Positions 7,213 through 35,156 of a DNA stretch of 35,156 nucleotides are shown here, piece after piece. The translations under genes and the position numbers were made by a program. Position 1 is the first letter of the stretch, and every line of letters begins with the position of its first letter. The notes under the pieces are model-generated. The model saw nothing but the letters and a program-made list of their open reading frames with translations. It was not told where the DNA came from and did not search any database. Source of the DNA: Lentisphaerota bacterium (GTDB taxonomy: Bacteria > Verrucomicrobiota > Lentisphaeria > Oligosphaerales > PUNB01). The DNA lies in assembly GCA_003552565.1 (NCBI GenBank), contig PUNB01000122.1, positions 1-35,156 on the forward strand. Direction: 5' to 3'.

Positions 7213-7264
7213 AAGGTTTCAGCAGCACAAAAGCAGGTGCTAACCCTTTCCGCACGGGGTTTAA
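7213..7264. mobile_element. Truncated MITE-like element, interior type C (one end only)
   Basis: aaggtttcagcagcacaa...aaccctttccgcacggggt-TTAA resembles 12476-12524; terminal repeat abuts the TAA stop of the response regulator. Confidence 0.65.
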
Positions 7265-7926
7265 TAACTGTCGTGCTGGACATATTCCGTGGCGTATTGC
7301 AGGAGTTCAATTGAATTTTTAAGTCCCAGTTTGCTTTTTATATTGGCCCGATGGGTCTCGACGGTTTTGACGCTGAGATTTAACTCAGCGGCGATATCGC
7401 TTGTCTTTACACCGCTGCCGATAAATTCCAGAATTTCGAATTCCCGATTGGTGAGGCCGTGAATCGGCGGCGCTTCAGCTCGAGAGCTTTTTCCTTTTCC
7501 GCCCACTACAGGGGCCAGAATACGGGTGTACATGGCTTCGCTTAAATAGGTGTTGCCGGCGGCGACCCGTTTAATGGCGCTGATCATTTCTCCAGCTCCT
7601 TTTTCTTTCATTATGTAGCCATTGGCTCCGGCCTTCAGCACTCTTTCGGCGTAAAGAGCTTCACCATGCATCGACAGAACCAGAATCGGCTGTCGCCAAC
7701 CCTGATCCCGCAGATCGCGAATCAGAGAAATGCCGTTGTGTTCTCCCAGAGAAATGTCAAGCACCAGTACGTCCGGGGCGGCGGAATTCAGAGCTTCGAG
7801 AGCTTCTCCGGGGGTGCCTGCTTCGGCGCAAACCTGCAGCCCCGGCTGCTGTTCGATCAGCTGCGCCAAGCCGCGACGAACCAATTGATGATCGTCAATC
7901 AGCAGAATTTTGATCGGTCCGGTCAT
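7261..7926 (-). CDS. NarL/LuxR family DNA-binding response regulator
   Basis: REC domain (LIDDHQLVR, LVLDISL, LSMH, GANGYIMK) plus HTH (LTNREFEIL...LSVKTVETHRANI); no adjacent kinase. Confidence 0.95.
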   Translation of the reverse strand: MTGPIKILLIDDHQLVRRGLAQLIEQQPGLQVCAEAGTPGEALEALNSAAPDVLVLDISLGEHNGISLIRDLRDQGWRQPILVLSMHGEALYAERVLKAGANGYIMKEKGAGEMISAIKRVAAGNTYLSEAMYTRILAPVVGGKGKSSRAEAPPIHGLTNREFEILEFIGSGVKTSDIAAELNLSVKTVETHRANIKSKLGLKNSIELLQYATEYVQHDSY

Positions 7927-19184: not shown

Positions 19185-19204
19185 AACAAATTTCCTAACG
19201 CGTT

Positions 19205-19245
19205 CCTATGTGAGACTTCGTGGTTTCAGGTTTCAGTGTTCAGGT
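19205..19245 (+). repeat. 16-bp junction motif plus heptamer repeats
   Basis: cctatgtgagacttcg-tggtttcaggtttcagtgttcagg between ppx and ppk1. Confidence 0.7.
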
Positions 19246-19249
19246 CTAA

Positions 19250-20818
19250 CTAAGCGCCGGTCACTCTGATCTCAATCGAGCGAGCAAAAACAATTTCGAA
19301 CATGTCGCCTTTATTGCGAACCCCGGCGACCGCCAGACTGAGATCATAATCACTGACAGCGGTCAAACACACTTTTTCATTATCGTAAGTCGCCCGAAGG
19401 TCTTTCACCTTGTTCTGATGCGCCCGGTCGAAAGCATCCGCCACCCTCAGGATTGCCGCCAGTTTGCTTACCAGCACCCGGTTCTCGGTCGACAAGGATA
19501 CATATTCTGAATGGGCGTTGCGCGGCAATGCCCGGCGATGATAGCGGGCAATCAGAGAAATCAGGTTGAGTTCATCCGAGGACAAACCCGGCAGCTCACT
19601 GTGGCGCAATAGATAATAGGAATGCTTGTGATGCTCTCTATTGCTTACAAACATGCCTATATCATGCAGCAGCCCCGCCACTTCCAGCAGTACCCGACAG
19701 CGCTCAGGTAAGCCGTGCAGAACGGACAGCTGATCGTACAGACGCAAAGCCAGGGAAGTAACTTTATGAGCATGTTGGGAATCGTAGTCATAGCGCGTTC
19801 CCAGATGCTCGGCGGAAGCGATAATCTGGCTGACGAAGCTGTCAGGCTCTCCGCCCAATTCACGGAACAGGTCTTTCGTCAAGGCGTCCCTGGTATCGAC
19901 CATGGGAATTATCATCCGCTCGGCCTCGCTGGCGTTGAACAATTGTTCCAGCATGTGACAGCATGGCAGGATGCCGGCGGCGTCCGTGTCGCTCAGCCCA
20001 TATTGTCGAATGAGTTCAAATTCATCCATTTGATTCAAGCGGATGAAGTGTTTGTCAAAAGTTTTTTTTGACATTGTCGCCACCTTCGCCGGGGTTTGAC
20101 TGCGAACGATAGCGACCAGCGCCCGTACCGGTGCACCGACAACAATCAGGTTTTCCGGATGCATTCTCCTGGACATTCTGTTTATTCCCATGAATGTTGC
20201 GGCCAGTAGAGGATCCACAGCTTCCCGCATACGCAGAGGAGTCAGCTGCTGCTCCATTTCTTCAGCCAGCCGCAGCGTTCCCACCCGGATCGTTTCCGCG
20301 TTGACCAGCCGGCCGTCTTCCACCAGAGAAACCTGGCAGGAACCGGTGCCGATGGTGTAGATAATCGAATCACCAGTATTAAAACCGAATTTTCCGGCCA
20401 TGATTTCCCGTACGGCCAGAAACAGCACCCTGGCTTCATTTGCTCCTTCCAGAATATCTAGACGGATGTCGCTGGCCTGCTTGATGCGATCAAGAAATAT
20501 ATCGCGATTGAAAGCCTCCCGCACCGCGCTGGTGGCTATCGCTTTATACCGCTTAATCCCGTATTCCCGCATCAGCCGGGCGAAATCGCGAAAAATCTCT
20601 TCACCCAGTACCATGTTTCGCGAGCCAATATAGCTGGAACGAAAAACATCGTGCCCCAGAGGAATATTCTGAGTCGCCTCCTCCAGTACTTCCATTTCAT
20701 CGTTGACCGAAGACTGCACGATCCTCAGCCTGGCTGAATGAGCTCCAAGGTCGATGACCGCCAGTGGACTCGTATCAGGAGCTTCAGCGGCGAATAATTT
20801 TGTTTTACGAGTCGGCAT
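19250..20818 (-). CDS. ppx: Exopolyphosphatase / GppA family with HD domain
   Basis: VIDLGAHSAR, ATSAVREA, EAR, IGTGS; C-terminal LLHDIG, HHKHSYY, ARYHR, ADAFD. Confidence 0.93.
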   Translation of the reverse strand: MPTRKTKLFAAEAPDTSPLAVIDLGAHSARLRIVQSSVNDEMEVLEEATQNIPLGHDVFRSSYIGSRNMVLGEEIFRDFARLMREYGIKRYKAIATSAVREAFNRDIFLDRIKQASDIRLDILEGANEARVLFLAVREIMAGKFGFNTGDSIIYTIGTGSCQVSLVEDGRLVNAETIRVGTLRLAEEMEQQLTPLRMREAVDPLLAATFMGINRMSRRMHPENLIVVGAPVRALVAIVRSQTPAKVATMSKKTFDKHFIRLNQMDEFELIRQYGLSDTDAAGILPCCHMLEQLFNASEAERMIIPMVDTRDALTKDLFRELGGEPDSFVSQIIASAEHLGTRYDYDSQHAHKVTSLALRLYDQLSVLHGLPERCRVLLEVAGLLHDIGMFVSNREHHKHSYYLLRHSELPGLSSDELNLISLIARYHRRALPRNAHSEYVSLSTENRVLVSKLAAILRVADAFDRAHQNKVKDLRATYDNEKVCLTAVSDYDLSLAVAGVRNKGDMFEIVFARSIEIRVTGA

Positions 20819-20827
20819 TTTAATACT

Positions 20828-21811
20828 CTACTGGTCGGAATAATCAGTATTCATCATCGCCAGGCGGGCAGCGCCCGCGGGGACCGCGTCATCTCCGAGC
20901 CGGGAAAGACGTAGATCCACATCTTTCGGGTTCAGCGCGAAAAGATTGTTTTCAAACCCCTGGCGAACCAACGGCAGCAACTGCTCGCCCAGAGCCTCCA
21001 TAACGCCGCCGCCGAAAATCAGGCAGTCAGGAGCCAGAACTGCGCTCATATTGGCAGCTCCGATTCCCAGTATTTCAGCACCTTTGTTGAGCACTTTGCA
21101 AACCACCTTATCCCCCGCCAAATAAGCCTTTTTCAGATGTTTACTGCGAAGACGGGAAAAATCCTTACCGGCGTATTCTGTCAGAACGCTGCTTTTCCCT
21201 TTTTGATTGATTTTTTTATCCAGCTTGCGGGCAAAGGCCGTTTTGCTGCAGTAAGCCTCCAGGCAGCCGCGCTTGCCGCAGCCGCAGCGACGGCCTTTGC
21301 GCCGGATGATGTGATGCCCCAGCTCACCGCCGAGACCGCGGTTGCCAACATGCAGCCGGCCGTTGATAATGATACCGCCGCCCAGGCCGGTGCCGAGAAA
21401 AAAGCCGACCACCGTGCGGGCATCTCCGGCAGTGCCAGCCCAATATTCCCCTAGTAATCCGCAATCTGCATCATTGCCCAGCACTGTTTCACGTTCAAAA
21501 ACTTCATTGAAAATTGCCTGCGCCGGTTCGTTTTTCCAGCCTAGGTTAGGGGCGTGCAGCAGTATGCCGGTTTGCGGATCGACGGCGCTGGGAACCGCCA
21601 CCCCGAGGCTTGCGATCCGCCGCCGGTATAAATCGCCTTTCTCAAGCGCCCGCTCCAGCACCGAACGCATGACCGCGGCCATTTCCCCCACCCCCAGGCC
21701 GACTTCGGTTTTCTCTTTCGCTCTGGCCACCGCCTTGCCGTCGCCGTTAATAATCAGGGCGGCAATATTGGTACCGCCGAGATCGATGCCCGCATGATAT
21801 GTTTCCGACAT
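20828..21811 (-). CDS. ROK family sugar kinase (glucokinase-like)
   Basis: GIDLGGT, NDAD, LGTGLGGG, GELGH, CGCGKRGCLE; ATG 21811 preferred because the ORF-track start lies inside a repeat. Confidence 0.92.
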   Translation of the reverse strand: MSETYHAGIDLGGTNIAALIINGDGKAVARAKEKTEVGLGVGEMAAVMRSVLERALEKGDLYRRRIASLGVAVPSAVDPQTGILLHAPNLGWKNEPAQAIFNEVFERETVLGNDADCGLLGEYWAGTAGDARTVVGFFLGTGLGGGIIINGRLHVGNRGLGGELGHHIIRRKGRRCGCGKRGCLEAYCSKTAFARKLDKKINQKGKSSVLTEYAGKDFSRLRSKHLKKAYLAGDKVVCKVLNKGAEILGIGAANMSAVLAPDCLIFGGGVMEALGEQLLPLVRQGFENNLFALNPKDVDLRLSRLGDDAVPAGAARLAMMNTDYSDQ

Positions 21812-21854
21812 TATTGTTCTTTTTCCTTTCTTAAGAGTGTTGTTGAAGGTTTCG

Positions 21855-22029
21855 CTAGACCCTATGCGAAAAGGATCTTGTGGAGCTCTCAAGCTCGAAA
21901 GTGACTGCGCGTTCCACGGCCAATTGGATTAAGGCGAAAGATTGTGACGAAAGATTAGGGGGAGAACGGGTGCGCTCCTTAATCTTTCGCCTTAATCTCG
22001 TTTCCGACCCCTTTCCGGACGGAGTCTAG
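21855..22029. mobile_element. MITE-like element, interior type B (reverse orientation)
   Basis: CTAG-ACCCTATGCGAAAAGG...CCTTTCCGGACGGAGT-CTAG; right CTAG contains the TAG stop of the upstream gene; about one GATTA unit shorter than the other B copies. Confidence 0.9.
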
Positions 22030-22874
22030 GTAACCGTTTTCAGTCTTTCCCCGGCGGATTGTATAACTCTCTGCATGGAAGCGGGTGAGGTTATGAAAAG
22101 ATGCACCTTGTCGCCGGTGAACTCTTCGAGTGTTTGTTGAAAGCCGGTTTGCAAAGGGTTTAAAACGGCCACCTGCCACTGACTGCTCATTTGGGCAAAA
22201 GGGATTATCCCCAATCGCCGGGCATGTTCAAAAGGCACTAAAGCAAAAGCTTCCTCGGGTATTTCAAAACGCTCGAGTTCAACGAAAGGTGTGGCGGTAT
22301 GGGCGGACAAGAAGCCTATAATAGCGTTTATGTCCACTTTATCCATGCTTTCCAATTCATGCATCAGAGACAATGTTGATTCGGAAGCAGTGTTCATTCT
22401 GCTTTCGGTGATGCCGGAGATTGCGGCTTCATACTGCTCCGAGGAAATCATTTCGTTTTGCAGAAGCAACCAGGCAAAATCGATTTCAGCATTTAAATTG
22501 AATTCCAGCTGCGCCTCCGAAGGACTGGGCTCGACTTCCTCGTTTTCCGTCCCCAGCAAAGCGTCAGCGGGATTCTCGGATACTTCCAATAGTCGTTCGG
22601 CTTCTGGATCATCAGGATTCAGGGTCAGCAGATGCTGAGCCAGTGAGTAGAGCTGAGACCAATTCTGCTCTTCCTCGAAAACTTCAGCCAGCCGCATGTA
22701 TATTTCCCAAGCCTGAGAGGCGTTGCCGATTTTTTCATAAGAAGCCGCCAGCCCGGAAAGCGCGGAAGGATCATGCGGATGTTTTTCCAGGATGGACTCA
22801 CAGGCTCTTACTGCTTCCCAGGCGGCCGCGTCATCTCTTGCAAATTCTTCCATGTTTTGGGGGGTGGCAAACAT
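22026..22874 (-). CDS. TPR-like N-terminus plus MshEN/T2SSE_N-like domain protein
   Basis: Helical repeats (HPHDPSALSGLA, LTLNPDDPEA); C-terminal LLQNEMISSEQYEAA and PFVELERFEIP...ARRLGIIPF...VAVLNP resemble the PilB/GspE N-domain; no ATPase. Confidence 0.7.
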   Translation of the reverse strand: MFATPQNMEEFARDDAAAWEAVRACESILEKHPHDPSALSGLAASYEKIGNASQAWEIYMRLAEVFEEEQNWSQLYSLAQHLLTLNPDDPEAERLLEVSENPADALLGTENEEVEPSPSEAQLEFNLNAEIDFAWLLLQNEMISSEQYEAAISGITESRMNTASESTLSLMHELESMDKVDINAIIGFLSAHTATPFVELERFEIPEEAFALVPFEHARRLGIIPFAQMSSQWQVAVLNPLQTGFQQTLEEFTGDKVHLFITSPASMQRVIQSAGERLKTVT

Positions 22875-23027: not shown

Positions 23028-23043
23028 TGGCACGAAAATTGCT
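23028..23043 (+). promoter_or_regulatory. Sigma-54 (-24/-12) promoter facing pilB
   Basis: TGGCACG-AAAA-TTGCT, exact match to TGGCACG-N4-TTGCW; sigma-54 activator encoded in the same locus. Confidence 0.85.
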
Positions 23044-23107
23044 TGTTTGTTGGAAAGCAATCTGACTATCAAGCAATTTCCAGTCGGTGTTATTGAATAT
23101 TGCCGAG

Positions 23108-23356
23108 TTAGACCCTATGCGAAAAGGTATCGCACCCATGCTCCCGCTTGTTTCGGATGAGATTTCGGTTTTCCTCGGAAAACCGGAAGATCGCCGAAAC
23201 AAGCGGGAGCCTTATCGGGTAGGGGTGCGGCGGGGCGTCTCCGGTTTTTATGCCGCAAGTCATTAGCGCTGAGGCTGGTAACTGACGGAACAAAAACCGG
23301 ATCAGACCTGCCGGCGCTCCCAACAAGGGCGTGAGACCTTTTCGCATAAGCTCGAG
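23108..23356. mobile_element. Composite MITE-like element (type A module plus second hairpin module)
   Basis: TTAG-ACCCTATGCGAAAAGG...CCTTTTCGCATAAGCT-CGAG; first part is the reverse complement of the 6019 element minus 35 bp; second part has a ccggttttt...aaaaaccgg hairpin. Confidence 0.85.
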
Positions 23357-23426
23357 ACATCCCCATAGGTATAAGTAAATGGAAATCAACAGCTCGAAGA
23401 ACAAAAAACATGGTGTTGGAGCCGGC

Positions 23427-25127
23427 ATGTCATCAGGTCTTCTGGAAAGACTTGTCGCCAGCGGCGCTCTTGATGAGATACACCAAGAGGAAATAGAATC
23501 ATCCTTTGAGGGCGGTCAGTCCGAGCTGGAAAAGCTCCTCAAAGAAGATTACGCCGTTGATTCCGCCGAATTTTGTCTGGCGATCGCTTCCTATGCCAGA
23601 ACACCGGTCCTTTCCCTGGCGAATCACACGCCTGATTCTTCTCTTTGCGAAGAATTTCCAATTGAAATCCTGCAAAGAGAACGGATGCTTCCGGTGGGCC
23701 GCACGAGCCGCACCTTGACGCTGGCTCTGGCTGATCCCATGAACGTATTAGCCGTTGAGGAAATGGAGGACTTGACCGGCCTCAAGGTGTTGCCGGCGGC
23801 GGCTCTGGAGTCGGAAATCAATGAGGTGCTGAAGGCGTTAACCGAAAAAGGTAAAGGCGACCTTGACAACGCCTTCCAGGAAGCAGGCGGAGAAAAGGAT
23901 ATTCAGATTGCCTCGGGAGAAGAAGACGATTCGGATATCGACAGCATGCTGGAAAGCGCCTCTCACGCGCCGGTTATCCGGATCGTCAATATGATCCTTA
24001 TGGAGGCTTTGAGCAAAGATGCCAGCGACATTCACATTGAAGCATTTGAAAAACAGATGCGTCTGCGTTACCGCATCGACGGAGTTCTTTTTGAGGGGCC
24101 TGAGCCGCCGAAGCATTTGCAGTCCGCTATCATTTCCAGGCTTAAGGTTATGTCGGAACTGGACATAGCCGAACGCCGGATACCCCAGGACGGCCGCTTT
24201 AAAATCAAGGCTCAGGGAAAGGAAATTGACCTGCGAGTGTCGATACTGCCGACAGTGCATGGGGAGAAAACCTGTATGCGGCTGCTGGACAAAAGCAATC
24301 TGGCTGCCTCTCTGGATGTGCTCGGGCTGGATCCTGATTCACTGCAAAAACTGCGCGGCGCCATTCACCAGCCTTACGGATTAATTCTCGTCACCGGCCC
24401 GACGGGCAGCGGTAAAACCACCACTCTTTATTCCGCTCTTCAGGAGCTGAACAGTCCTGAAGTAAACATTACCACGGTGGAAAACCCGGTGGAGTATCAG
24501 CTCATGGGCATCAATCAGGTGGAAATCCGGGAAATAGTGGGAATGACCTTCGCCGCCGCATTGCGATCCATACTGCGGCAGGACCCGGATATTGTATTGG
24601 TCGGGGAGACTCGCGACAGTGAAACGGCCGACATCGCGGTCAAGGCGGCACTGACCGGCCATCTGGTTATGACCACCCTGCACACTAATGATGCCCCCGG
24701 AGCCGTGGCCAGGCTGGCTTACATGGGCATTGAGCCTTTTTTGATTGCATCCTCCCTGCTGCTTTCACAGGCTCAGAGGCTGGTGCGTAAAATTTGCACC
24801 AACTGTAAAGAGCCCTTTGAATTTTCACCGGAATACGCTGAAGCCAATCATATCCCCCCGGACCAGTTCGACAACGCTCAGGTTTACAAGGGGCGCGGCT
24901 GCAATCGTTGCAACCATACCGGTTACAAGGGCAGAGCCAGCATTATGGAGATTCTGCAAGTGACCCGGGAAATGCGCGAGTTGATTTTGCGCACAACCAA
25001 CGCCGACGACATCAGAAACATGGCCCTCCAGCAGGGATTTCGCAATCTGCGCCAAAACGGTTTTTACAGGGTGCGCGAGGGAATCACCACCATTGAAGAA
25101 GTACTGCGGGTGACCGCCACCGAATAG
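23427..25127 (+). CDS. pilB: Type IV pilus assembly ATPase (PilB/GspE family)
   Basis: ASDIHIE, DIAERRIPQDGR, GPTGSGKTT, LRQDPD, AALTGHLV.TTLHTN, CxxC...CxxC; ATG 23427 has GGAG RBS (track start 23379). Confidence 0.93.
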   Translation: MSSGLLERLVASGALDEIHQEEIESSFEGGQSELEKLLKEDYAVDSAEFCLAIASYARTPVLSLANHTPDSSLCEEFPIEILQRERMLPVGRTSRTLTLALADPMNVLAVEEMEDLTGLKVLPAAALESEINEVLKALTEKGKGDLDNAFQEAGGEKDIQIASGEEDDSDIDSMLESASHAPVIRIVNMILMEALSKDASDIHIEAFEKQMRLRYRIDGVLFEGPEPPKHLQSAIISRLKVMSELDIAERRIPQDGRFKIKAQGKEIDLRVSILPTVHGEKTCMRLLDKSNLAASLDVLGLDPDSLQKLRGAIHQPYGLILVTGPTGSGKTTTLYSALQELNSPEVNITTVENPVEYQLMGINQVEIREIVGMTFAAALRSILRQDPDIVLVGETRDSETADIAVKAALTGHLVMTTLHTNDAPGAVARLAYMGIEPFLIASSLLLSQAQRLVRKICTNCKEPFEFSPEYAEANHIPPDQFDNAQVYKGRGCNRCNHTGYKGRASIMEILQVTREMRELILRTTNADDIRNMALQQGFRNLRQNGFYRVREGITTIEEVLRVTATE

Positions 25128-25137
25128 AGGAAAAATA

Positions 25138-26271
25138 ATGGCTTTCAGTAACAAACAGACATCAAACAGCTCCAGGGGAAATCGCAATGCCCCAGGGAAG
25201 GTGTCATCCGGAGGTGTCAAAGTGCGCGGTGCGAAAAAAATCCGCAAACGCGAACTTTGTCCTTTCACTCAGAAGTTGACCGCCATGCTCAGTGCCGGGC
25301 TGCCTCTGATCCAATGCCTTACGGCTCTTTCGGAGCAGGTTGAGGATCCCAACTTTCGTCCTGTTGTTGAGGACATAAAGTCGCGCGTGGAGGGAGGGGC
25401 TTCGTTTGCTGAAGCTCTGGAAGTTTACCAGAACCTCTTTGGGGATTTATACGTTAATATGATCAGAGCCGGAGAAATGAGCGGCAGCCTGGGGGAAGTC
25501 ACCGCCCGCTTGTCCTCTTACCTGGAAGCCAGCGCGGCAATGATCCGCAAAATTAAATCCGCACTCACTTATCCTGTGGTGGTGGTGGTGCTGGCAACCA
25601 TACTCGCTATCGGCATGCTGATTTTTATCGTGCCGGTTTTTGAAGGTATTTTCGCCGACTTTGGAGCGGATCTGCCGGCGCCGACTCAGATACTGGTGGA
25701 TGTCAGTGACACAGTTCGCAACCAAACGCCGTTGGTAGTGGCGATTATTATTGCTTTAACTCTGATACTGCGGCATGTTAAAAAGACCCCTCAGGGGGCG
25801 TTGGCCGTCGACCGCATGATATTACGAGCGCCGGTGGCCGGCAAGCTGGTTGAGAAAATTGCTCTGGCCCGCATGTCCAGGACTTTCGCTTCGCTGCTCA
25901 ACAGCGGGGTGCCGATTCTAAAAACCGTCCAGGTTGTCGCTCAAGCCACCGGCAACCGCGTTATCGGCCAGGCTTTGGCTTCATGCGGAGGAGCTATTGA
26001 AAACGGCGCCAATGTTGGTGAATCATTGAAAAAAACCGGCAGGTTTCCGCCGCTGGTCATACATATGGTGTCGGCGGGAGAAAAAACCGGCAATATCGAC
26101 GGCATGCTGGAAAAGGTCGCGGACTTTTACGAGGACGAGGTGAATAATACCATGGAATCTTTGTCCAGCATGATCGAACCTTTGCTGATGGCTTTTCTGG
26201 GGGTGGTTATTGGAGGTATCGTTATCTGCATGTTTCTGCCGATATTTCAGATGCACGAAGTTGTTTCGTGA
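25138..26271 (+). CDS. pilC: Type IV pilus platform protein (PilC/GspF family)
   Basis: AGLPL, AGEMSGSL, KSALTYP, LPAPTQ, SGVPIL, GEKTGNIDGML, IEP, MFLPIF. Confidence 0.95.
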   Translation: MAFSNKQTSNSSRGNRNAPGKVSSGGVKVRGAKKIRKRELCPFTQKLTAMLSAGLPLIQCLTALSEQVEDPNFRPVVEDIKSRVEGGASFAEALEVYQNLFGDLYVNMIRAGEMSGSLGEVTARLSSYLEASAAMIRKIKSALTYPVVVVVLATILAIGMLIFIVPVFEGIFADFGADLPAPTQILVDVSDTVRNQTPLVVAIIIALTLILRHVKKTPQGALAVDRMILRAPVAGKLVEKIALARMSRTFASLLNSGVPILKTVQVVAQATGNRVIGQALASCGGAIENGANVGESLKKTGRFPPLVIHMVSAGEKTGNIDGMLEKVADFYEDEVNNTMESLSSMIEPLLMAFLGVVIGGIVICMFLPIFQMHEVVS

Positions 26272-26781: not shown

Positions 26782-26864
26782 AAGCTGCTACCCACCAAAT
26801 CTAAGAAAAAACTATTAGCAACCCACTCGTCTTGAGAAAGAGCCAAAAATCACGAGCGACTATT

Positions 26865-28184
26865 ATGAATTCGGCCAAAAAATTGATAGATTGGATAAAA
26901 AAGGATCAAGTGGGGAGTCGCCACCCCCCACTCGCCTTGGTTATGCTGGCGCGACTGGCGCTTCTGGCGCTTCTGCTGGTGGTTTTGCTGGGGTTCTCTG
27001 ACTACACTCTTGATTTCCTGGAAATTTCACTTTTCATGGGGTTGACCTTTGCCATTTCTTTATTATACACTTTGTGGATGAGACAGGACGGGGATTATTC
27101 CCGTCAGGCCATGTGCCAATTCGCGGTTGACGCTTTTATTATCACCGGCCTGGTTCATTTTACCGGCGGCGCGGCCAGTGCCCTCTCTCTGCTCTACCCG
27201 CTGTTGATTCTTTCCGCCGGCATTATTGTCTCCGGCCGGGTGGCGGTGAAAACGGCGCTTCTTTCCTCCTTCCTATATATAATTCTGATTGCCCTCGAAT
27301 ATAATGACTTTCTGCCCTATCGCGGAGAGGAACCATCGCCTTACGAAAACCTGGCGAGTCTAAGTCAGATGACCATGCTGCAAGTGTTGCTTTTCGTGTT
27401 TTTCGCGGCGGTCAGCAGTTATGTCAGCGATCGCTATCTTTATCAGTCTCTGCAATTGAGACGACTGCGCGAGATGACCAAAAGCACTCTCGAGAGTGTT
27501 TCCGTGCCGCTGCTGGCGATAAAAAATCCCGAGGGCCTGATAAAATTAGCCAATCCGGCGGCCTGTCGATTGTTAAAGCGGAGCGAATCGGAACTTGCCG
27601 ACAGTCAGTTTTCCGCGTTGTTCGCGGAGCGGGCGCCGACACCGCGGGAAATAATTTCAGAGCAGGATTGCGTATGGTGTCTGAAGAAAGCGGACGGCAC
27701 CTCTTTTCCCGTGAGCCTGGAAATATCAAAGGACAGCCTTTCAGGAGCTGTGCTCAGCGCCATACATCAGGATTCCGAAGACGCGGAAGTCAACCTGGTG
27801 GCTTTTCAAGACATGAGTCGGCTTATGCAAGAAGAAGAGGGAATTAGAACCACCGAAAAGACCAAAACCGCGGTCGGCATGATTACTGAAATGGCGCACG
27901 TGGTGCGCAACCCCTTGACCGCTATTCGGGGAGCCGGCGAACTGATCAACGCGGCGGTAGAAGAAGCTCTTTCCCGGCAGCACCAGATTACGGAAGAGGA
28001 ATTTCATACCCTTAAATCCATGTGTGAAATCATCTTTGACCAGACGCGCGAACTGAACAGTAAAGTCGAAGATTTCATGTCTTACGCCGACGGTGATCAA
28101 GAAAAACTACTCGATTTGGTGGCTCAAGCCAATCTATGGGGCGAAAGAGTAACCAAAAAACGTCAGACCGCACCAAAAAAATAA
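26865..28184 (+). CDS. PilS-like membrane sensor (multi-TM, PAS, HisKA) lacking the HATPase domain
   Basis: PilS-type membrane region (QFAVD...TGLVHFTGGAAS...LLY), PAS (ANPAA), H-box MAHVVRNPLTAI; ends 94 codons after the His; directly upstream of pilR. Confidence 0.8.
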   Translation: MNSAKKLIDWIKKDQVGSRHPPLALVMLARLALLALLLVVLLGFSDYTLDFLEISLFMGLTFAISLLYTLWMRQDGDYSRQAMCQFAVDAFIITGLVHFTGGAASALSLLYPLLILSAGIIVSGRVAVKTALLSSFLYIILIALEYNDFLPYRGEEPSPYENLASLSQMTMLQVLLFVFFAAVSSYVSDRYLYQSLQLRRLREMTKSTLESVSVPLLAIKNPEGLIKLANPAACRLLKRSESELADSQFSALFAERAPTPREIISEQDCVWCLKKADGTSFPVSLEISKDSLSGAVLSAIHQDSEDAEVNLVAFQDMSRLMQEEEGIRTTEKTKTAVGMITEMAHVVRNPLTAIRGAGELINAAVEEALSRQHQITEEEFHTLKSMCEIIFDQTRELNSKVEDFMSYADGDQEKLLDLVAQANLWGERVTKKRQTAPKK

Positions 28185-28229
28185 ATTTAACTGAAATAAA
28201 GCTTCCAGAACCTTTTTCGGAAGCATGTT

Positions 28230-29660
28230 ATGAGAGTGAAATCAAGCTTGACAAATTCTCAGAAAATTCTTATTGTTGATGATGAACCCGGGATCGTGAA
28301 AGTCCTTCAGGCCGGCCTGAAGAGGGACGGCTATTATCCGCTGGCGGCATCTTCAGGAAAAGAAGCAGTCGAAACGCTTTCCACTACCGCTGTCGACTTA
28401 ATTCTCCTGGACTTGCGTTTGGGCAAGGGCATCAACGGTTTCCAGACCATGCAGAAAATTCGCGAAACGGGCAGCCGGACCCCGATAATCATGATGACCG
28501 CTTACGGCAATATTGAAACCGCGGTCAGAGCGCTTAAAGCCGGAGCCTGTGATTTTATCTGTAAACCCTTTTCCCTGGATGATTTGAGGCATTTGATAAG
28601 GGAGGCTTTGCAGAAACGCTCCCTTGACTCAGCCGCCTTCTCGGAACCGTCTGATGACAGCGAGGAGAGCACTGGCGTGCAGTGTCATTTTGGCTATTTG
28701 ATTGGTGAAAGCCCCGAGATGCGGCGAGTTTACCGGCTGATTGAGCGCAGTGCTCCCACTGATGCCACTGTGCTTATACAAGGCGAAAGCGGCACCGGCA
28801 AAGAGTTGGTGGCGCGGGCGTTACACAAGCACAGCCGGCGCGCCGACCGGCCCTGGGTGCCGCTGAACTGCGCGGCGGTGCCGGTAAGTCTGCTGGAATC
28901 GGAAATGTTCGGACACACCTCCGGCGCTTTCACCGGGGCGCGGTTCGAAAGACAGGGGCTTTTTATAAGCGCCTCCGGCGGAACTTTGTTTCTAGATGAA
29001 ATCGGGGTCATGAACCTGGGACTGCAAGGGAAACTGCTGCGGGCGCTGCAAGAAGGAAAAGTGCGCCGCATAGGCGAAAATCAGGATACTGATGTCGATG
29101 TCAGAGTGATCGCGGCCACCAACGAAAAACTGGAAGATAAAATCCAGGACGGCTCTTTCAGGACAGACTTGTACTATCGCGTCAATGTCATTCCGATAGA
29201 ACTGCCGCCACTGCGTGAAAGGGGTGGAGACATTGTCATCTTGGCGGAGGAGTTCAAAAATCAGCAAAGCAGGAAGTTGGGGAAAGAGTTTCGGCTTGCC
29301 CCCTGCGCAATAAATGCTATAATTAACTATTCTTGGCCGGGCAACGTTCGGGAATTACAGAACGCTGTGGCTTGTGCCGCCACATTATGTGACCAGTATA
29401 CGATTGAAGTGAGCGACCTGCCGCCACACATAGCTGAGTGCGGGGAAGAAAATCCCATGACCGTCCAGGAAACAATTTCCGCGGAGGATCGCGCTCAGGC
29501 GGATGGAGAGCACCAAGCTCCTTTGGATCAATATCTTAAGCAAAAAGAGCGGGAGTATATTCGAAAAATTCTCCAGAAAACCGGCGGCAACCGATTACAA
29601 GCGGCTGAAATCCTCGGCATCAGCCGCACAACATTATACCGGAAATACGAAAACTGCTGA
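28230..29660 (+). CDS. pilR: Sigma-54-dependent response regulator (PilR/NtrC family)
   Basis: REC (LIVDDE, LLDL, MTAY, KPF), AAA+ ([28 protein letters not shown]), Fis HTH; symbol assigned from context. Confidence 0.85.
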
Positions 29661-29672
29661 TAAGAAAAAAAA

Positions 29673-30770
29673 ATGTTTAAACAACTGATAAGAAACTTTA
29701 GATGGCATCGAGACGTGGACAAAATGGGCCCCCGCAGATTTCTGATTGCGGAGTTGGGACGGGATAACTGTAAAATCGTCCTTTTAGAGCGGTCAGGTAA
29801 AAAAATTTCTTGGAATATAGCTGAAAATTTAAAGCTGGAAGGAAAAAATGACATCACCGGCGGTGAGCGAATGAGCGAAGCGCTGCGGCAGCTGAAACAC
29901 GATGCTCAGTATATTTCAGTTGTTTTTGGAGGCGGCGGTTTTCTTGTGCGCCTGCTTAATCTGCCCGGCACTCCGCCTGCCGAGGAGCGGAAACTGATTT
30001 CTCAAGTCAGGCAGACATTGGGAATAGATGATTCATTTGCTTTGCAGACCCATATCCAAAGTTCAATGGCTGCCGCCCAGGAAAAAGACTTGAAAACAGC
30101 CAGCGCCAAGACTAATCAACAAGGGTATTCGGTGGTTGTTGCCGCCGGTAAAAATGAATTGATTGAAGATATACAGGGGGTGGTGCGAGAAGCGGGATTG
30201 GTCCCTGTTTCCATGCTGCCTTCAGGAATCGCCGGCGCCAATCTGGCCGCTGATGAAATGCGGGATGGTGCCGAAAATTCCGCCGCCGGCTTCTTCCTCA
30301 TCGAATCTCATTCCTCTATCCTCTTACTCTTTCATCATACTGAATTGGTTCTGACTCGTCAGTTCAAAACCGGCTACCGCGCATTTGTGGATGCAGTCAT
30401 GTCCAATTTGGGACTTGATGAAGAAACCGCCACTGATATTCTTAACAGCGGTTCTTTTGATCTCTCTGATAATATTGCCTCCGTCGCCAATAACTGGCTT
30501 CACCAGATAGGCATCAGTCTGGATTTTCTCGAACGCCGTTTCGGTTACCGCGTGGACTGCCTTTATTTTCTTAGCACGGAGGGAGGACAGAAGGCGATTG
30601 AAACAATGCTTTGCAAGACAATTAATGACACCGTGGCTCCGTGGAATCAATTCAAGGCGCTGAAGGCGCTGGACATGGAAGGAGAAAAACAGAATATTCT
30701 CTCAACTTATGCTTTGCCCCTCGGTGAAGGAATGAGAATATATAAAAACACAGGTAATCATGACGTATAA
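29673..30770 (+). CDS. pilM: PilM-like pilus alignment protein (divergent)
   Basis: Position before pilNO; AELGRDNCK, VVVAA, EAGL.P, IGISLDF resemble the PilM actin-like fold. Confidence 0.7.
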   Translation: MFKQLIRNFRWHRDVDKMGPRRFLIAELGRDNCKIVLLERSGKKISWNIAENLKLEGKNDITGGERMSEALRQLKHDAQYISVVFGGGGFLVRLLNLPGTPPAEERKLISQVRQTLGIDDSFALQTHIQSSMAAAQEKDLKTASAKTNQQGYSVVVAAGKNELIEDIQGVVREAGLVPVSMLPSGIAGANLAADEMRDGAENSAAGFFLIESHSSILLLFHHTELVLTRQFKTGYRAFVDAVMSNLGLDEETATDILNSGSFDLSDNIASVANNWLHQIGISLDFLERRFGYRVDCLYFLSTEGGQKAIETMLCKTINDTVAPWNQFKALKALDMEGEKQNILSTYALPLGEGMRIYKNTGNHDV

Positions 30771-31434
30771 TATCAATTTCTGGAGCGTCCCTGACTGGAA
30801 CCGCGAGAGCAGCATCAACCCCAATTTTTTAATGGCGGTGATCGTTGCTTTGTTTATTCTGGTTTCGTTTTCCTGGTACACCGTGGTTGAAGGCAGAAAA
30901 AGGCATTTCGAAAGCGAAAAGCAAACCTTGACTCAGGAAGTCAGCGGCCTGGCGCCGCAAGCGGATAGATTGGCTGAACTTAAAGAGAAAACAGCCTTGT
31001 GGGAAGAGGCCTTATCCTTGCTTCGTCGAAAAGGGGAACAACGGATTTTCTGGAGCCGGCAGCTGGCCGGACTGCAGCAGCTTGTTCCTGATCATATTGT
31101 TCTGACCAGCCTGTCCATTCGTGATCAGACAAGACGGGTGGAAGTGCCCGCCGCCGAATCAATGACCAGAAGCCATACTGGCGAGACCCAGGAAATTGTT
31201 GAATTTCGCACTGTCTACACACTGCATCTGGAAGCCGTGGCGGAAGGTGAAAACGCGGAAAAAAAAATCACCGATTTCGCCCGAACAATTGGCAACAGCA
31301 GAATCATTGGAGAGCTGCTGACGTCCTATGACATCCAGAATATCAGTCAGTCCGAAGAAAGAGAGGAAGATGGGAAGACCATCACCCCCTTTTATCTGAC
31401 TTTTGAGTATCAGGAATTTCCGGAGTTTATGTAG
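30760..31434 (+). CDS. pilN: PilN-like protein
   Basis: N-terminal INF motif, single TM, coiled coil, WS..LAGL...VPDHIVLTSL. Confidence 0.75.
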   Translation: MTYNINFWSVPDWNRESSINPNFLMAVIVALFILVSFSWYTVVEGRKRHFESEKQTLTQEVSGLAPQADRLAELKEKTALWEEALSLLRRKGEQRIFWSRQLAGLQQLVPDHIVLTSLSIRDQTRRVEVPAAESMTRSHTGETQEIVEFRTVYTLHLEAVAEGENAEKKITDFARTIGNSRIIGELLTSYDIQNISQSEEREEDGKTITPFYLTFEYQEFPEFM

Positions 31435-31436
31435 TT

Positions 31437-32093
31437 ATGAAGGGAAAATTAGATAATTTCGACTTGCAGGCTATCATGGCCTCTGAACAGATTCGTAAAT
31501 GCGGCATGGGCCTGATTGCAGGTATCATGGTTTTGCTGGCAGTCTGGTTTCTGGCTGTCCGCCCTGCGCAAGTCAGTATACAAGAAATGCAGGATGAAAT
31601 TAAAGATCTGGAAAGACGCTCGAACAATAAGCAGACAGTTATTGACCAAGCCGACATAATTGAAAAAAAATATGAGCAAACGGGTGAAAAACTCAAAACG
31701 ATAATTGAGCAGGACATGGCTCCTGAAAGAGCCGCCTTGGGATGGGCCAGCAGGCGATTGCGAAGTGCGGCGGCCGCTACCGGATTGGAGGTGCGTGACT
31801 ATACCGGCAGCACTGTCTCGCCGCCCGGCAGAGGCGGAGATCAGATTCCGCCGCTGCTGGAAAACTTCTCCACCCGCTTTGAATTGCGCGGCGGTTATCA
31901 TCAGATCGGCCGTTTTTTTGCTGTTCTGGAGAAAGAACTGCCCTATGCTTTAATGAGGAATTTGAGTATCTCCCCGCAAAGAAGACGAGGACGGGATTCC
32001 CAGCTTCTGCAGGCTAATGTAACCTATAGATTTCCACGTTTTACTGAAGAGGGCTTTCCCCCGGAAAAAAGGCCATCTTCAGAAAATGAATAA
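31437..32093 (+). CDS. pilO: PilO-like protein
   Basis: Single TM, coiled coil, LRGGYHQIGRFF..LE motif. Confidence 0.8.
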   Translation: MKGKLDNFDLQAIMASEQIRKCGMGLIAGIMVLLAVWFLAVRPAQVSIQEMQDEIKDLERRSNNKQTVIDQADIIEKKYEQTGEKLKTIIEQDMAPERAALGWASRRLRSAAAATGLEVRDYTGSTVSPPGRGGDQIPPLLENFSTRFELRGGYHQIGRFFAVLEKELPYALMRNLSISPQRRRGRDSQLLQANVTYRFPRFTEEGFPPEKRPSSENE

Positions 32094-32160
32094 TTTGTGC
32101 TTTAATTTTATCCGTATACCTCAATGAGGGTAACCCGCTTTCACACTGGAGTTTTAAATC

Positions 32161-32625
32161 ATGCAGCCGTCAACCAGCTTGATGAAAACATTGCTAATCT
32201 CTTTCATTTTTGCAAATATTCTCATTTTTGCGATTTTTCCGGTGGTGCAGTTTTCAATGGCCGAGACGGATCACTCAATTCAGAACTTACGGCAGGGAGA
32301 TGAATTTCGCGGTCCGGGATATCATATTTCCGACCAGCAGAGAGACCCTTTTAGGTTAGCCACGGAAACCGAGGTTGAAGTGGATTCTGATGATTTTACG
32401 GAGGAAGACATTCGTAATATGCTTAATCTGACCATGGTTTTCAGTTCTGCCTCCGGAGGGCTGGCGAATGTCAATGGAAAACTTGTTCGTCCCGGTCAGG
32501 AAATAGAGGTAGAAACAAATGGCATGGAAATTGCTATACAGATTAAAGAAATCGATCCTGCTAATTCGGGAATCTTCGTAGTTTACGAGGAAATGGAAAT
32601 TTTTATTCGCGCCGATCGGCAATAA
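32161..32625 (+). CDS. PilP-like protein
   Basis: N-terminal hydrophobic segment, RDPF motif, ANVNGKLVRPGQ; between pilO and the secretin; no lipobox Cys. Confidence 0.6.
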   Translation: MQPSTSLMKTLLISFIFANILIFAIFPVVQFSMAETDHSIQNLRQGDEFRGPGYHISDQQRDPFRLATETEVEVDSDDFTEEDIRNMLNLTMVFSSASGGLANVNGKLVRPGQEIEVETNGMEIAIQIKEIDPANSGIFVVYEEMEIFIRADRQ

Positions 32626-32672
32626 ACAACCGTTGAAGAGACATTAAATAAAAGCAAAAAAAGGAAAGTATA

Positions 32673-35156
32673 ATGAAAATTGATGATCAGTATTGCTCTC
32701 TTGTCGCTCAAATCAAAAATTCACGTAAAACAGTTTATTTTCTCCAGGCGGTCGTTTGTGTGACATCACTTTTGTTGTTGCTGCATCTGGGTTTAAAGGG
32801 GCCCGTCGCGATCGGGGGTGAGCCCGGTCCGGAAGGCGATGATGAGCCGGCGACAGATGAACTTCTGGCGGAAGAGGGTTCCCCGGATGAAGAAGAGATG
32901 GAATTGCTGGCACCGGAAGAGCAGGCGCCTGAGGCTGAAGAAGGAATTGATATGGTGGAGGAAGAGGACGACCGTATCAGCGTCAGTGTCAGTGAAGGTC
33001 AGATACAGGAAGTCCTTCGGACCATGGCGGCATTGCGTCCGGGCACCACGATCATGATATCTCCCGAAGTTGAAGGTGAAGTCAGTTTTGAACTTCAGGA
33101 TGTGCCTTGGCGCACCGCTCTTGATCTGATCGCCGACAACCAGGGACTGGAAATAATTGAGCGCGCTGACAATGTCTACCTGGCGCAGCCGAAAACCGAA
33201 TATGAAGAGATTGAAAGAGTAACCGATCTGGAGCTGGAGCTGTACACGGCTGAAGACATCAAAGAAATGCCTGAGGATGAATTGCGGCGGCTGTACCAAT
33301 CCCTGCGTCCGATTCCGGAAACGCTGACCGTAGAGGAAATGCGCGAGGAACTGGCCCCCCAGGCGCACGAATTTGTTAAACACTTGCGAGTGGAGAACCG
33401 CCGGGCCATCGAAGTCATTAACCAGCTGGCCCGGCAAAGTGATGTGGATTTTATTTTCTCCACTCATTTCGATGATGACCCGGAAGCTGAAACTCCTGCC
33501 CCCTCCAAAGATGAAGGGCCGCCGATTTCTTTGAACCTCCGCAATCGTCATATTTCCAGTGTCATCAGGACAGTGGCCGAGCAGGGAGGACTGTCCACCA
33601 CCTATCAGGATGACACTTGGCTGGTGAAACCGATGCGTCCCGAACAGAGGGAACTGGAACCGCTGGTCAGCGAAACTTTTCAGGTTCAATATATAAATGT
33701 GGACGAAAAGCTGGTCGAAGACCTCGAAAAAATCAGTTCCGACCGAGGGCAGATTATCACCCGCGGCAAAGTTATCACCGTTTTCGACACCGCTGACCGC
33801 ATTGAGCAGATGGATCGGATAATCTCTGATCAGGATGTGGCCACCCCGCAAGTGCTGATTGAGGCTCGATTCTTTAATCTCACAGATACTACTTCCCATG
33901 AACTGGGTATTGACTGGCGTTCTTTGGGGGAAGGCATGAGCTTGCGAGTCGCTCCCGAAAGCCTTACTTATGACTACCGCCACGGCAGGTTGATCGGGCC
34001 AGTGGATGCTAATGATGGTTCTTTCGTTGATCCCCGATATCTGCGGGACGGCGAAAACAGACTCAGCCGGTTAATCCATCCAAATTATCTGCCCCAGTTG
34101 GGTGATCGCTCTCCTGATGACCTGCCGGGCGATTACACCGCCATAGACCCGCGCACCGCCACCTTGAATCTTCCCAGCCTGGAGGCGGTGCTGTACGCCT
34201 TGGATTCCATGGACAAAGCGGAGCAGCTCTCCAACCCGAAAATCCTCGTCAGCAGCGATGAGCAGGCGACGATCCATATCGGCCGCCAGGAACCCATCCT
34301 GCGCAGCACCGTCGCCACTGTCGACGGGGAAGTGATCAGAACCTTTGAACTCGATACTAACTTTGGTGGCGAAACAGTGCGGGTGGCCGATCTGCTTTCC
34401 GACCGCGTAGGCACCATCAGCCATGATGACGCCTATACCGGTTATACCGGTTATCTCGACTTGGGCACTAAGCTCACCGTGGCGCCCTCGGTCAAAACCG
34501 AGGACGAAGTTTACATCCGGGTAATTCCTGAACTGATCAACAAACCCGGTGAAATCACGGTTGGCGAAGACGCTTTCCGACAGTCATTCCCGGAGCTTTT
34601 CAGGGTGCGGGTGCAGACTCAGTTCAACCTGCGCAGCGGCCAGACAATCGCCATTGGCGGGCTGGTCAGTGAGGATATGACAACCGATCAGCGAAGAGTT
34701 CCCTTCCTGCATCGGCTGCCTCTGGCCGGCAGGCTGTTTCAATATGATTTTGATAGGGAAATCCGTACGGAAACGATTATCTTTTTGACCGTCCATATTA
34801 TTTCTCCCGATGAAATGGATACCACCGACGGCATGCCTGTTATGTCCCGGAGCATGCAGTCGCGGGTCAACCAGATCAGAGCCGCCGATGAGGCGGGCGG
34901 TTTATATGATGAAGAAGCGCGCCAGCGCGAACTGGAAGCCGCGGAGGAAGCGGAAAGAACTCGCCGCCACCCCTGGCCCTTCGGCAAAAGAGATAAAGGT
35001 GAACCGGAAGAAGAAGCCCCCGTTCCTTCACCGGAAGAAGAGCCTCAGCCGGAACCGGCGGATGAACCTGACGATGAACCGGCTGATGAACCAGAGCATG
35101 AAGAGGCGGTGAAACCTGACGACGAAGAACCGGAAGAGAAAGAAGCCGAATCCGAG
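32673..35156 (+). CDS. pilQ: Secretin (PilQ/GspD family), partial at 3' end; absent from the ORF track
   Basis: Frame from ATG 32673 (AAGGA RBS) read as open to the window end; LQDVPW..AL, PQVLIEARF, LGIDW, LSNPKIL, LGTKLTVAP, GQTIAIGGL, VPFLHRLPLAGRLF, IIFLT. Confidence 0.92.
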   Translation, partial: MKIDDQYCSLVAQIKNSRKTVYFLQAVVCVTSLLLLLHLGLKGPVAIGGEPGPEGDDEPATDELLAEEGSPDEEEMELLAPEEQAPEAEEGIDMVEEEDDRISVSVSEGQIQEVLRTMAALRPGTTIMISPEVEGEVSFELQDVPWRTALDLIADNQGLEIIERADNVYLAQPKTEYEEIERVTDLELELYTAEDIKEMPEDELRRLYQSLRPIPETLTVEEMREELAPQAHEFVKHLRVENRRAIEVINQLARQSDVDFIFSTHFDDDPEAETPAPSKDEGPPISLNLRNRHISSVIRTVAEQGGLSTTYQDDTWLVKPMRPEQRELEPLVSETFQVQYINVDEKLVEDLEKISSDRGQIITRGKVITVFDTADRIEQMDRIISDQDVATPQVLIEARFFNLTDTTSHELGIDWRSLGEGMSLRVAPESLTYDYRHGRLIGPVDANDGSFVDPRYLRDGENRLSRLIHPNYLPQLGDRSPDDLPGDYTAIDPRTATLNLPSLEAVLYALDSMDKAEQLSNPKILVSSDEQATIHIGRQEPILRSTVATVDGEVIRTFELDTNFGGETVRVADLLSDRVGTISHDDAYTGYTGYLDLGTKLTVAPSVKTEDEVYIRVIPELINKPGEITVGEDAFRQSFPELFRVRVQTQFNLRSGQTIAIGGLVSEDMTTDQRRVPFLHRLPLAGRLFQYDFDREIRTETIIFLTVHIISPDEMDTTDGMPVMSRSMQSRVNQIRAADEAGGLYDEEARQRELEAAEEAERTRRHPWPFGKRDKGEPEEEAPVPSPEEEPQPEPADEPDDEPADEPEHEEAVKPDDEEPEEKEAESE

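Follow-up and report, generated by a model that had tools for sequence, protein, structure and literature searches.

A PilS-like sensor without an ATP-binding domain is conserved in Lentisphaeria and Kiritimatiellia and may act as a phosphatase of PilR

In textbook two-component signaling, a sensor both charges and discharges its response regulator. A type IV pilus gene cluster of a Lentisphaerota bacterium (NCBI GenBank assembly GCA_003552565.1, contig PUNB01000122.1) raises the question of what such a sensor can do once its charging half is gone. The window refers here to the whole stretch of DNA analyzed, which is 35,156 nucleotides (nt) long and represents contig C268; the assembly comprises 275 contigs with a total of 2.09 Mb and is 86% complete. 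It encodes a PilS-like sensor that ends shortly after its H-box histidine, followed directly by pilR. The original prediction, made from the sequence alone, considered this protein a pseudokinase without an ATP-binding (CA) domain, specialized as a phosphatase-only or phosphotransfer sensor. The comparisons presented below revealed a natural, class-wide loss of the charging half in the sensor of the well-studied PilS-PilR system, with a regulator that keeps its phosphorylation site, and they suggest that the sensor may act as a signal-gated phosphatase.

Architecture of the sensor and its regulator

The sensor gene, its domains, and the adjoining regulator gene were located as follows (coordinates on the window).

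26865..28184, plus strand: CA-less PilS-like sensor gene, 439 amino acids (aa), stop included; open reading frame (ORF) call, Pfam, six-frame CA scan
26925..27434, plus strand: six-helix transmembrane (TM) input domain, about aa 21-190, with Arg30 in TM1; AlphaFold2 (AF2) model, 6TM_PilS
27510..27812, plus strand: PAS domain, aa 216-316; AF2 strands and helices, pLDDT above 85
27867..28094, plus strand: DHp (HisKA) helical hairpin, aa 335-410, with H-V-V-R-N at 27897-27911; Pfam, AF2, H-box alignment
28098..28166, plus strand: extra C-terminal helix, aa 412-434, with Trp425, where the CA domain would be; AF2
28185..28229, no strand: spacer of 45 nt from the sensor stop to the pilR start, too short for a CA remnant; sequence
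28230..29660, plus strand: pilR, 476 aa, with REC, Sigma54_activat, AAA_lid, and HTH_8 (Fis-type helix-turn-helix) domains; Pfam

The sensor starts with an ATG at 26865, which agrees with the N-termini of its closest relatives; an alternative in-frame TTG lies at 26832, from which the Pfam numbering on the sensor was counted. The H-box histidine, His345, is encoded by CAC at 27897-27899 and followed by GTG GTG CGC AAC, giving H-V-V-R-N-P-L. Another 94 residues follow before the TAA stop at 28182-28184. The length beyond the histidine, the 45-nt gap, and the H-V-V-R-N motif had thus been described correctly in every detail.

The membrane part of the sensor matched the Pfam family 6TM_PilS (PF25323) with 42 bits against a cut-off of 27, and no second 6TM_PilS protein was found in this 86% complete genome. 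Its helices were placed by AF2 at residues 21-44, 51-72, 78-99, 106-121, 124-146, and 163-211. The sensor also showed a weak Pfam match to PAS_9, and PAS families matched 37 to 46 of the 69 short relatives described below. The HisKA match scored 26.6 bits, slightly below the cut-off of 26.9, while 53 of the 69 short relatives matched this family and His345 aligned with the histidine of 78 full-length forms. In the AF2 model (mean pLDDT 84), the DHp helices span residues 335-370 and 377-410. The Trp425 of the extra helix is near-invariant in the Lentisphaeria subclade, and a Trp occurs at this position in 35 of 67 short forms overall. The best NCBIfam matches, both partial, were AtoS and NtrB, and the sequence and fold matches in the PDB were ordinary PAS-histidine kinases (ThkA 3a0r, HK853, WalK, and FixL/LOV chimeras).

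Pfam detected no HATPase_c domain in the sensor. A custom CA-domain hidden Markov model (HMM), built from the C-terminal parts of the 78 full-length relatives, identified no CA-like stretch in the six frames of the whole window, in agreement with the prediction that neither a HATPase remnant nor a frameshifted tail is present. The sensor fails the features that define a kinase, namely the CA domain and a Glu immediately after the histidine (position H+1), and does not belong among the histidine kinases.

In its input, position, and partner, the sensor is PilS-like. It shares a six-helix membrane domain, an Arg in TM1, a PAS domain, and a HisKA-type DHp with PilS of the PilS-PilR systems of the Pseudomonas aeruginosa, Neisseria (Nps), Geobacter, and Myxococcus type, and its gene lies directly upstream of the sigma-54 activator gene pilR in a pilB-pilC-pilS-pilR cluster. 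In its membrane and PAS parts, the conserved residues Arg30, Gln85, Asp89, Gly101, Ser105, Tyr111, and Asn230 recur in full-length PilS. Arg30 was found in 67 of 67 short and 78 of 78 long relatives. It may correspond to Arg24 of P. aeruginosa PilS, the TM1 residue that contacts Glu5 of pilin in the available text of PMC6528607. The same text, citing Kilmury and Burrows (2016), describes PilS as controlling pilin expression through its phosphatase activity upon sensing pilin in the membrane. Unlike these systems, the sensor of the window has no CA domain, carries Val instead of Glu at H+1, and ends in an extra helix, and no pilin gene follows pilR in the window.

The PilR of the window retains Asp17/18, the phospho-acceptor Asp61, Thr90, Lys112, and the GAFTGA loop, and its REC, AAA+, and HTH domains are intact, as the original prediction had stated for the phospho-Asp and GAFTGA. 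Among 37 rows of PilRs found beside short sensors, in which at least five genomes are counted twice, the phospho-Asp was present in 36 and the DD, Thr, and Lys in all 37. One PilR (L010) carries a Val in place of the phospho-Asp, though its sensor retains the His.

Distribution and age of the short sensors

The original prediction expected the truncation to recur among orthologues, and this expectation was borne out. A word-indexed search returned 30 homologues, which are 416-451 aa long and 31-65% identical to the sensor. A precomputed HATPase domain was listed for none of them; a 578-aa protein at 25% identity does have one. A profile search of 1.84 billion representatives gave 48 rows above 223.6 bits, 47 of them at most 457 aa long and the remaining one a multi-PAS protein of 4,799 aa, while full-length PilS-like proteins of 525-601 aa appeared at 223.6 bits and lower.

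A set of 147 retrieved proteins of 380-620 aa was aligned. It comprised 69 proteins of at most 470 aa (the short forms, 390-457 aa) and 78 of at least 500 aa, with none of intermediate length. HATPase_c was found in none of the 69 short forms. The number of residues after the histidine was 70-115 in the short and 201-259 in the long forms, and these ranges do not overlap. A maximum-likelihood tree was constructed from 394 shared columns; it included the complete set of 69 short forms and, by taking alternate rows, 39 of the 78 long ones. In this unrooted tree, obtained by a quick search without bootstraps, 67 of the 69 short forms fell on one side of a single branch with an SH-aLRT of 100. The other two (P0110 and P0138) nested among long forms and may be fragments of genes or have lost the domain separately. 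A single loss of the CA domain would be the parsimonious reading, given that long forms occur in many phyla.

Within the phylum, 21 of 401 sampled genomes, including that of the window, matched the sensor at an E-value of at most 1e-10, at 24 places. Each of the 24 sensors is terminated by a stop codon, and they are 395-457 aa long except for one of 238 aa that matches just the C-terminal part of the query (L020) and one gene cut at a contig end. The original prediction had named full-length H-E-x-x-N kinases in close relatives as the finding that would speak against it; at this threshold, the 401 genomes yielded no full-length relative of PilS, and the forms at all 24 places were short. The pilR gene directly follows the sensor in 20 of the 23 loci besides the window, and pilB-pilC immediately precedes it in nine of 14 wider neighborhoods, giving pilB-pilC-pilS-pilR as the usual gene order around short sensors.

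Among genomes of named species, 37 short-form loci were identified, and no sensor ORF among them contained a CA domain. These loci belong to the Lentisphaeria, the Kiritimatiellales, and Pontiella, including P. sulfatireligans F21(T) and the Pontiellaceae strain B12227, as well as to a few metagenome-assembled genomes (MAGs) labeled Verrucomicrobiota and one MAG each labeled Spartobacteria and Chloroflexota. The latter two loci (L076 and L078) may be mis-binned contigs or reflect loose labels, and need not place the short form outside its clade. The sensor ORF ends in a stop in 36 of the 37 loci and runs off the contig in the other (L052), and pilR lies right after the sensor in 27. Another 33 loci with CA-bearing relatives (called ORFs of 325-582 aa, with pilR next in most) came from deltaproteobacterial, Thermodesulfobacteriota, Holophagae, NC10, Rokubacteria, and similar MAGs. 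Paralogues of the short PilS also occur, with three copies in genome G223 (L003, L022, and L024) and two in G292 (L002 and L023). Among the extra copies, pilR is missing beside L023 and L024, and L022 adjoins a PilR-like gene with a degenerate GAFTGA loop (GSSADA).

The recurrence of the truncated architecture in dozens of genomes is far beyond chance. Moreover, no CA-like stretch was found in any frame of the 37 named loci. A contrasting case is a deltaproteobacterial MAG (L113), where a full-length-type pilS is split by a frameshift and the CA remnant lies in another frame, within a 464-nt gap preceding pilR. The ratio of nonsynonymous to synonymous substitutions (dN/dS) was calculated pairwise within one genus, where the whole gene gave 0.06-0.13 and the DHp 0.01-0.23, at a dS of 1.2-2.5 that is near saturation. 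These values, below 1 as the original prediction anticipated, pertain to that genus and not to the lineage of the window, for which the DNA compared is 35-36% identical at the protein level with saturated dS. Overall, the CA-less PilS architecture is firmly supported, as is its stability in evolution. Among the papers listed by the literature searches, which do not prove absence, none described a CA-less PilS clade, and those listed for the Lentisphaeria, the Kiritimatiellia, or Pontiella made no mention of PilS. For annotation, the CA-less pilS genes should be treated neither as kinases nor as pseudogenes.

Conservation of the H-box

In the available text of Willett and Kirby (PMC3510030), an acidic residue at H+1 is required for kinase activity only and a Thr or Asn at H+4 for phosphatase activity only, consistent with the roles assumed in the original prediction. 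The His itself boosts phosphatase activity there, though it is dispensable, and every H+1 substitution tried in CrdS abolishes kinase activity. In the window, H+1 is Val346, which is not acidic, and H+4 is Asn349. Residues were counted on representatives at 50% identity, 77 full-length and 43 short.

His: full-length 77/77; short 38/43 (Asp 3, Gln 2)
H+1: full-length Glu 76/77; short acidic 17/43 (Glu 16, Asp 1), the rest Ser, Trp, Val, His, Gln, Ala, or Gly
H+4: full-length Asn/Thr 77/77; short Asn/Thr 41/43

The H-E/D-x-x-N/T motif is absent in the sensor of the window but kept in 17 of the 43 short representatives. A basal subclade, mostly of the Kiritimatiellia type, largely reads H-E-I-R-N/T, while the subclade of the window reads H-V-V-R-N. 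The expectation of H-V-x-R-N as a motif shared by the orthologues therefore failed, as Val at H+1 was confined to the subclade of the window and Glu was found in 16 of the 43. Since the basal subclade keeps the Glu and that of the window has Val, the loss of Glu followed the loss of the CA domain, as a secondary relaxation and not an independent second hit. The original argument, in which two separate kinase-disabling changes pointed to specialization, stood insofar as the clade and the dN/dS values speak against decay, but its two changes are not independent.

In the alignment, relaxation in the short forms is limited to the kinase-specific residue. Such a pattern would be expected from relaxed selection on kinase chemistry together with retained selection on phosphatase chemistry. 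A separate difference was observed at H-3 (Glu342 of the sensor), where Glu, an acidic residue specific to the short clade, occurs in 33 of the 43 short representatives and Gly in 58 of the 77 full-length ones.

A possible phosphatase function of the sensor

In the mechanism proposed here, an ancestral PilS would have lost its CA domain once, long ago, and would have retained its pilin-type membrane input, its PAS domain, and a DHp hairpin that docks on PilR. The resulting sensor would be unable to autophosphorylate and would most likely serve as a signal-gated phosphatase of PilR~P that uses Asn349 at H+4. PilR would obtain its phosphate from a non-cognate donor, for which acetyl phosphate (ackA-pta) may be the simplest candidate, with another kinase possible. 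PilR~P and sigma-54 would then drive the pil promoters, probably including both -24/-12-like sites in the cluster. We give this reading, a signal-gated, phosphatase-only PilS with PilR phosphorylated from elsewhere, somewhat better than even chances.

A structure prediction for the complex of two DHp copies with the PilR receiver is consistent with this mechanism. It scored 0.66, with the best control at 0.00; for comparison, 116 of 157 solved complexes attained this mark, as did two of 215 mismatched pairs. At least 86% of contacts were shared between runs, with a pLDDT of at least 85 for the partner. The predicted interface joins DHp residues 345-363 and 382-393 to REC residues 19-32, 63, 91-92, and 111-117. 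It corresponds to the canonical contact of helix 1 and helix 2 with the receiver, and includes residues 345, 346, and 349. This result may reflect a likeness to solved complexes of histidine kinases and response regulators, and is not proof of binding.

Known systems provide several points of comparison. DivL of Caulobacter carries a Tyr at the His position, as does the short relative L021, and both DivL and RocA of group A Streptococcus retain a domain resembling CA, without being PilS proteins. Like the sensor, both are described, in sources available in part, as histidine-kinase-derived proteins that turned into non-kinase regulators. According to the accessible portion of Amin et al. (2013; PMC3591291), 3.66% of HisKA proteins lack a HATPase domain, and 1.7% also carry HE/DxxN/T. 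The sensor falls into the same category of HisKA without HATPase but without the H-E/D motif used there, and that category is a database count without characterized members. ChrS_CA-fs of Corynebacterium glutamicum is, in the available text of PMC9491836, a CA-deprived histidine kinase that still shapes signaling via its response regulator. However, it is a laboratory-evolved frameshift that acts through heterodimers with the paralogous HrrS, and no paralogue was found for the sensor of the window. In E. coli, the DHp of NtrB or EnvZ without CA suffices as a phosphatase, with a phenotype of constitutive phosphatase activity, as reported in PMC3510030. By analogy, these DHp-only phosphatases would be what the sensor most resembles, although they are engineered fragments and the sensor is natural, membrane-anchored, sensor-coupled, and conserved in a clade.

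On the output side, two sigma-54 sites were found in the cluster.

23028..23043, plus strand: sigma-54 -24/-12-like site TGGCACGAAAATTGCT, 351 nt upstream of pilB; strict pattern match
32520..32535, plus strand: second sigma-54 -24/-12-like site TGGCATGGAAATTGCT, 153 nt upstream of pilQ; strict pattern match

The 2.09-Mb genome contains eight strict matches, where by our arithmetic about six are expected by chance; by the same arithmetic, two correctly oriented matches within 12 kb are more than chance gives. Their positions suggest that PilR may autoregulate its own operon and the secretin gene. In Kiritimatiellia loci, weak sigma-54 matches with seven to nine of 11 consensus positions were observed upstream of pilin genes that follow pilR, and three of six were judged plausible. 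The leader between the putative promoter and pilB (23044-23378, 335 nt) contains no convincing ORF, and no Rfam match was found anywhere in the window, this leader included.

With regard to the phosphate source, ackA and pta adjoin each other in the genome, and acetyl phosphate is therefore an available donor; rpoN is present as well. It may be the actual donor of PilR. A more specific scenario, in which the PilR of Lentisphaeria and Kiritimatiellia would have lacked a cognate kinase ever since the short clade arose, would be charged by acetyl phosphate, and would have its phosphate only removed by the sensor, is tentative, and we rate its chances as clearly below even. If true, PilR would read the fermentative metabolic state through acetyl phosphate, and pilus expression would combine metabolite-driven phosphorylation with a signal-gated phosphatase without an ATP-dependent sensor step.

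Several observations weigh against the phosphatase reading. An acidic H+1 is kept in 17 of the 43 short representatives, mostly in the basal Kiritimatiellia-type subclade, and the His in 38; both exceed the strict needs of a pure phosphatase. A CA-less DHp may also be a weak enzyme, by analogy with the strong increase in DHp phosphatase activity that the CA domain provides in the available text of PMC3510030. No phosphodonor was found, although a stand-alone CA domain, a paralogous kinase, and a conserved partner were all sought, in a genome just 86% complete. A sigma-54 site upstream of pilB occurs in just two of the 13 sequences examined, window included, and none was found in the 300 nt preceding the one canonical gene for a type IVa pilin. 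Finally, whereas the architecture, age, conservation, synteny, and residue pattern of the sensors are matters of observation, we infer their function wholly, that is, the phosphatase activity, the signal, and the phosphodonor.

The CA-less PilS provides natural tests of whether PilS relays the sensing of pilin through its phosphatase arm, of a DHp alone as a sufficient regulated phosphatase, and of acetyl phosphate or cross-talk as the sole phosphate source in vivo. Two cultured carriers, P. sulfatireligans F21(T) (L074) and the Pontiellaceae strain B12227 (L086), make it open to experiment.

Alternative explanations

One alternative is a non-catalytic anti-activator or scaffold, in which the DHp would bind the PilR receiver stoichiometrically and act by membrane tethering or by blocking oligomerization. 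The predicted canonical DHp-REC interface would suit this role, as would a His that is dispensable in some lineages, and pseudokinases of the binding type derived from histidine kinases are known from partially available sources (ChrS_CA-fs, PMC9491836; DivL and RocA). However, binding alone needs neither the phosphatase-specific Asn/Thr at H+4, kept in 41 of 43 representatives, nor the N-P-L core, which is kept too, and PilR retains a complete phospho-acceptor pocket. We regard this explanation as unlikely.

In a second alternative, His345 would take phosphate from the receiver of a hybrid kinase and pass it to PilR, in the manner of Spo0B or ChpT. The retention of His in most representatives and the composition of the genome are compatible with such a phosphotransfer: among its kinases, of which 11 are clear, including a soluble PAS-HisKA-HATPase protein that adjoins an NtrC-like regulator, there are at least three hybrids with C-terminal receivers (on C69, C201, and C166), and no Hpt domain was found in this 86% complete genome. 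Nevertheless, none of the hybrid kinases is linked to the sensor locus, and no other donor is. Ordinary Hpt proteins are present in all five related short-sensor genomes searched, which makes the absence of Hpt in the genome of the window uninformative. Furthermore, five of the 43 representatives, a sister pair among them, have Asp or Gln instead of the His, which favors a phosphatase over phosphotransfer as far as the residue pattern goes. At two genomic loci, sensors with Gln (L018) or Tyr (L021) at the His position adjoin PilRs with an intact acceptor Asp and a GAFTGA-type loop, which argues against an obligatory phosphotransfer via His. An Spo0B-like role appears improbable on these grounds.

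A split kinase would require a separate CA protein that phosphorylates the DHp in trans, or a heterodimer with a full-length kinase in the style of ChrS-HrrS. HisKA proteins without HATPase have been proposed as split kinases (Amin et al., PMC3591291, in the portion available), and the H-E/D-x-x-N/T motif in 17 of the 43 short representatives fits this proposal. A 114-aa frame in the genome of the window, C46:2-343 on the minus strand, is nearly all HATPase_c and is cut by the contig end, but it comes right after an HNH endonuclease ORF. Apart from this frame, the stand-alone HATPase partner that the original prediction proposed to look for was found neither near the locus nor as a conserved protein. 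No CA domain lies within about 9 kb of the sensor in the window, and the CA HMM gave a single match, a hybrid kinase, in the neighborhoods of 14 relatives (about 19 kb each). A search of five related genomes revealed no small CA protein that is conserved; three of these genomes contain no CA-bearing open frame shorter than 313 aa, and two contain one CA frame shorter than 250 aa. The sensor is the sole 6TM_PilS protein in its genome, and no kinase with a similar DHp was found there, the best match being 37% identical over 43 aa (E = 0.057). Additionally, the H+1 residue of the window is Val, and all H+1 substitutions tested in CrdS kill kinase activity in the available text of PMC3510030. A split kinase is, in our estimate, very unlikely. 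A 249-aa HATPase protein on C261 was considered as a CA partner and rejected, as it is a minimal HisKA and HATPase kinase beside its own receiver.

The weakest alternative, an ordinary PilS that recently became a pseudogene or was truncated by a frameshift or an assembly error, is refuted by the comparative data and is practically untenable, as the same class of stop position occurs across two bacterial classes under purifying selection and with no CA remnant, a genuinely frameshifted pilS (L113) looks different, and no point in its favor was found.

Gene neighborhood

The remaining genes of the pil cluster were assigned as follows.

22026..22874, minus strand: gene with TPR and MshEN domains, divergent from pilB; Pfam
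23379-25127, plus strand: pilB (T2SSE and MshEN); Pfam
25138-26271, plus strand: pilC (T2SSF), directly upstream of the sensor; Pfam
29673..35156, plus strand: pilM, pilN-like, pilO-like, a 154-aa ORF, and the secretin gene pilQ (3' open); Pfam

The Pfam matches to PilM_2 and PilO are weak, and that to Secretin is clear. The pilM gene starts 12 nt after pilR (29660-29673), with no pilin gene between them in the window, and the one canonical type IVa pilin gene of this genome sits on a different contig (C227). In contrast, short pilin genes with Glu5 and Pro22 follow pilR in the Kiritimatiellia-type loci L029, L030, L031, and L033. The divergent gene with TPR and MshEN domains occupies the same position beside pilB in about eight of 14 neighborhoods of relatives, and could represent a c-di-GMP input to the pilus ATPase. 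Elsewhere in the window, an orphan response regulator of the NarL/LuxR type is encoded at 7261-7926 on the minus strand, with no kinase gene near it in the window. Just upstream of the pil cluster, three consecutive genes at 17079-21892 on the minus strand encode a polyphosphate kinase (ppk1), a Ppx/GppA phosphatase that carries an HD domain, and a kinase of the ROK family.

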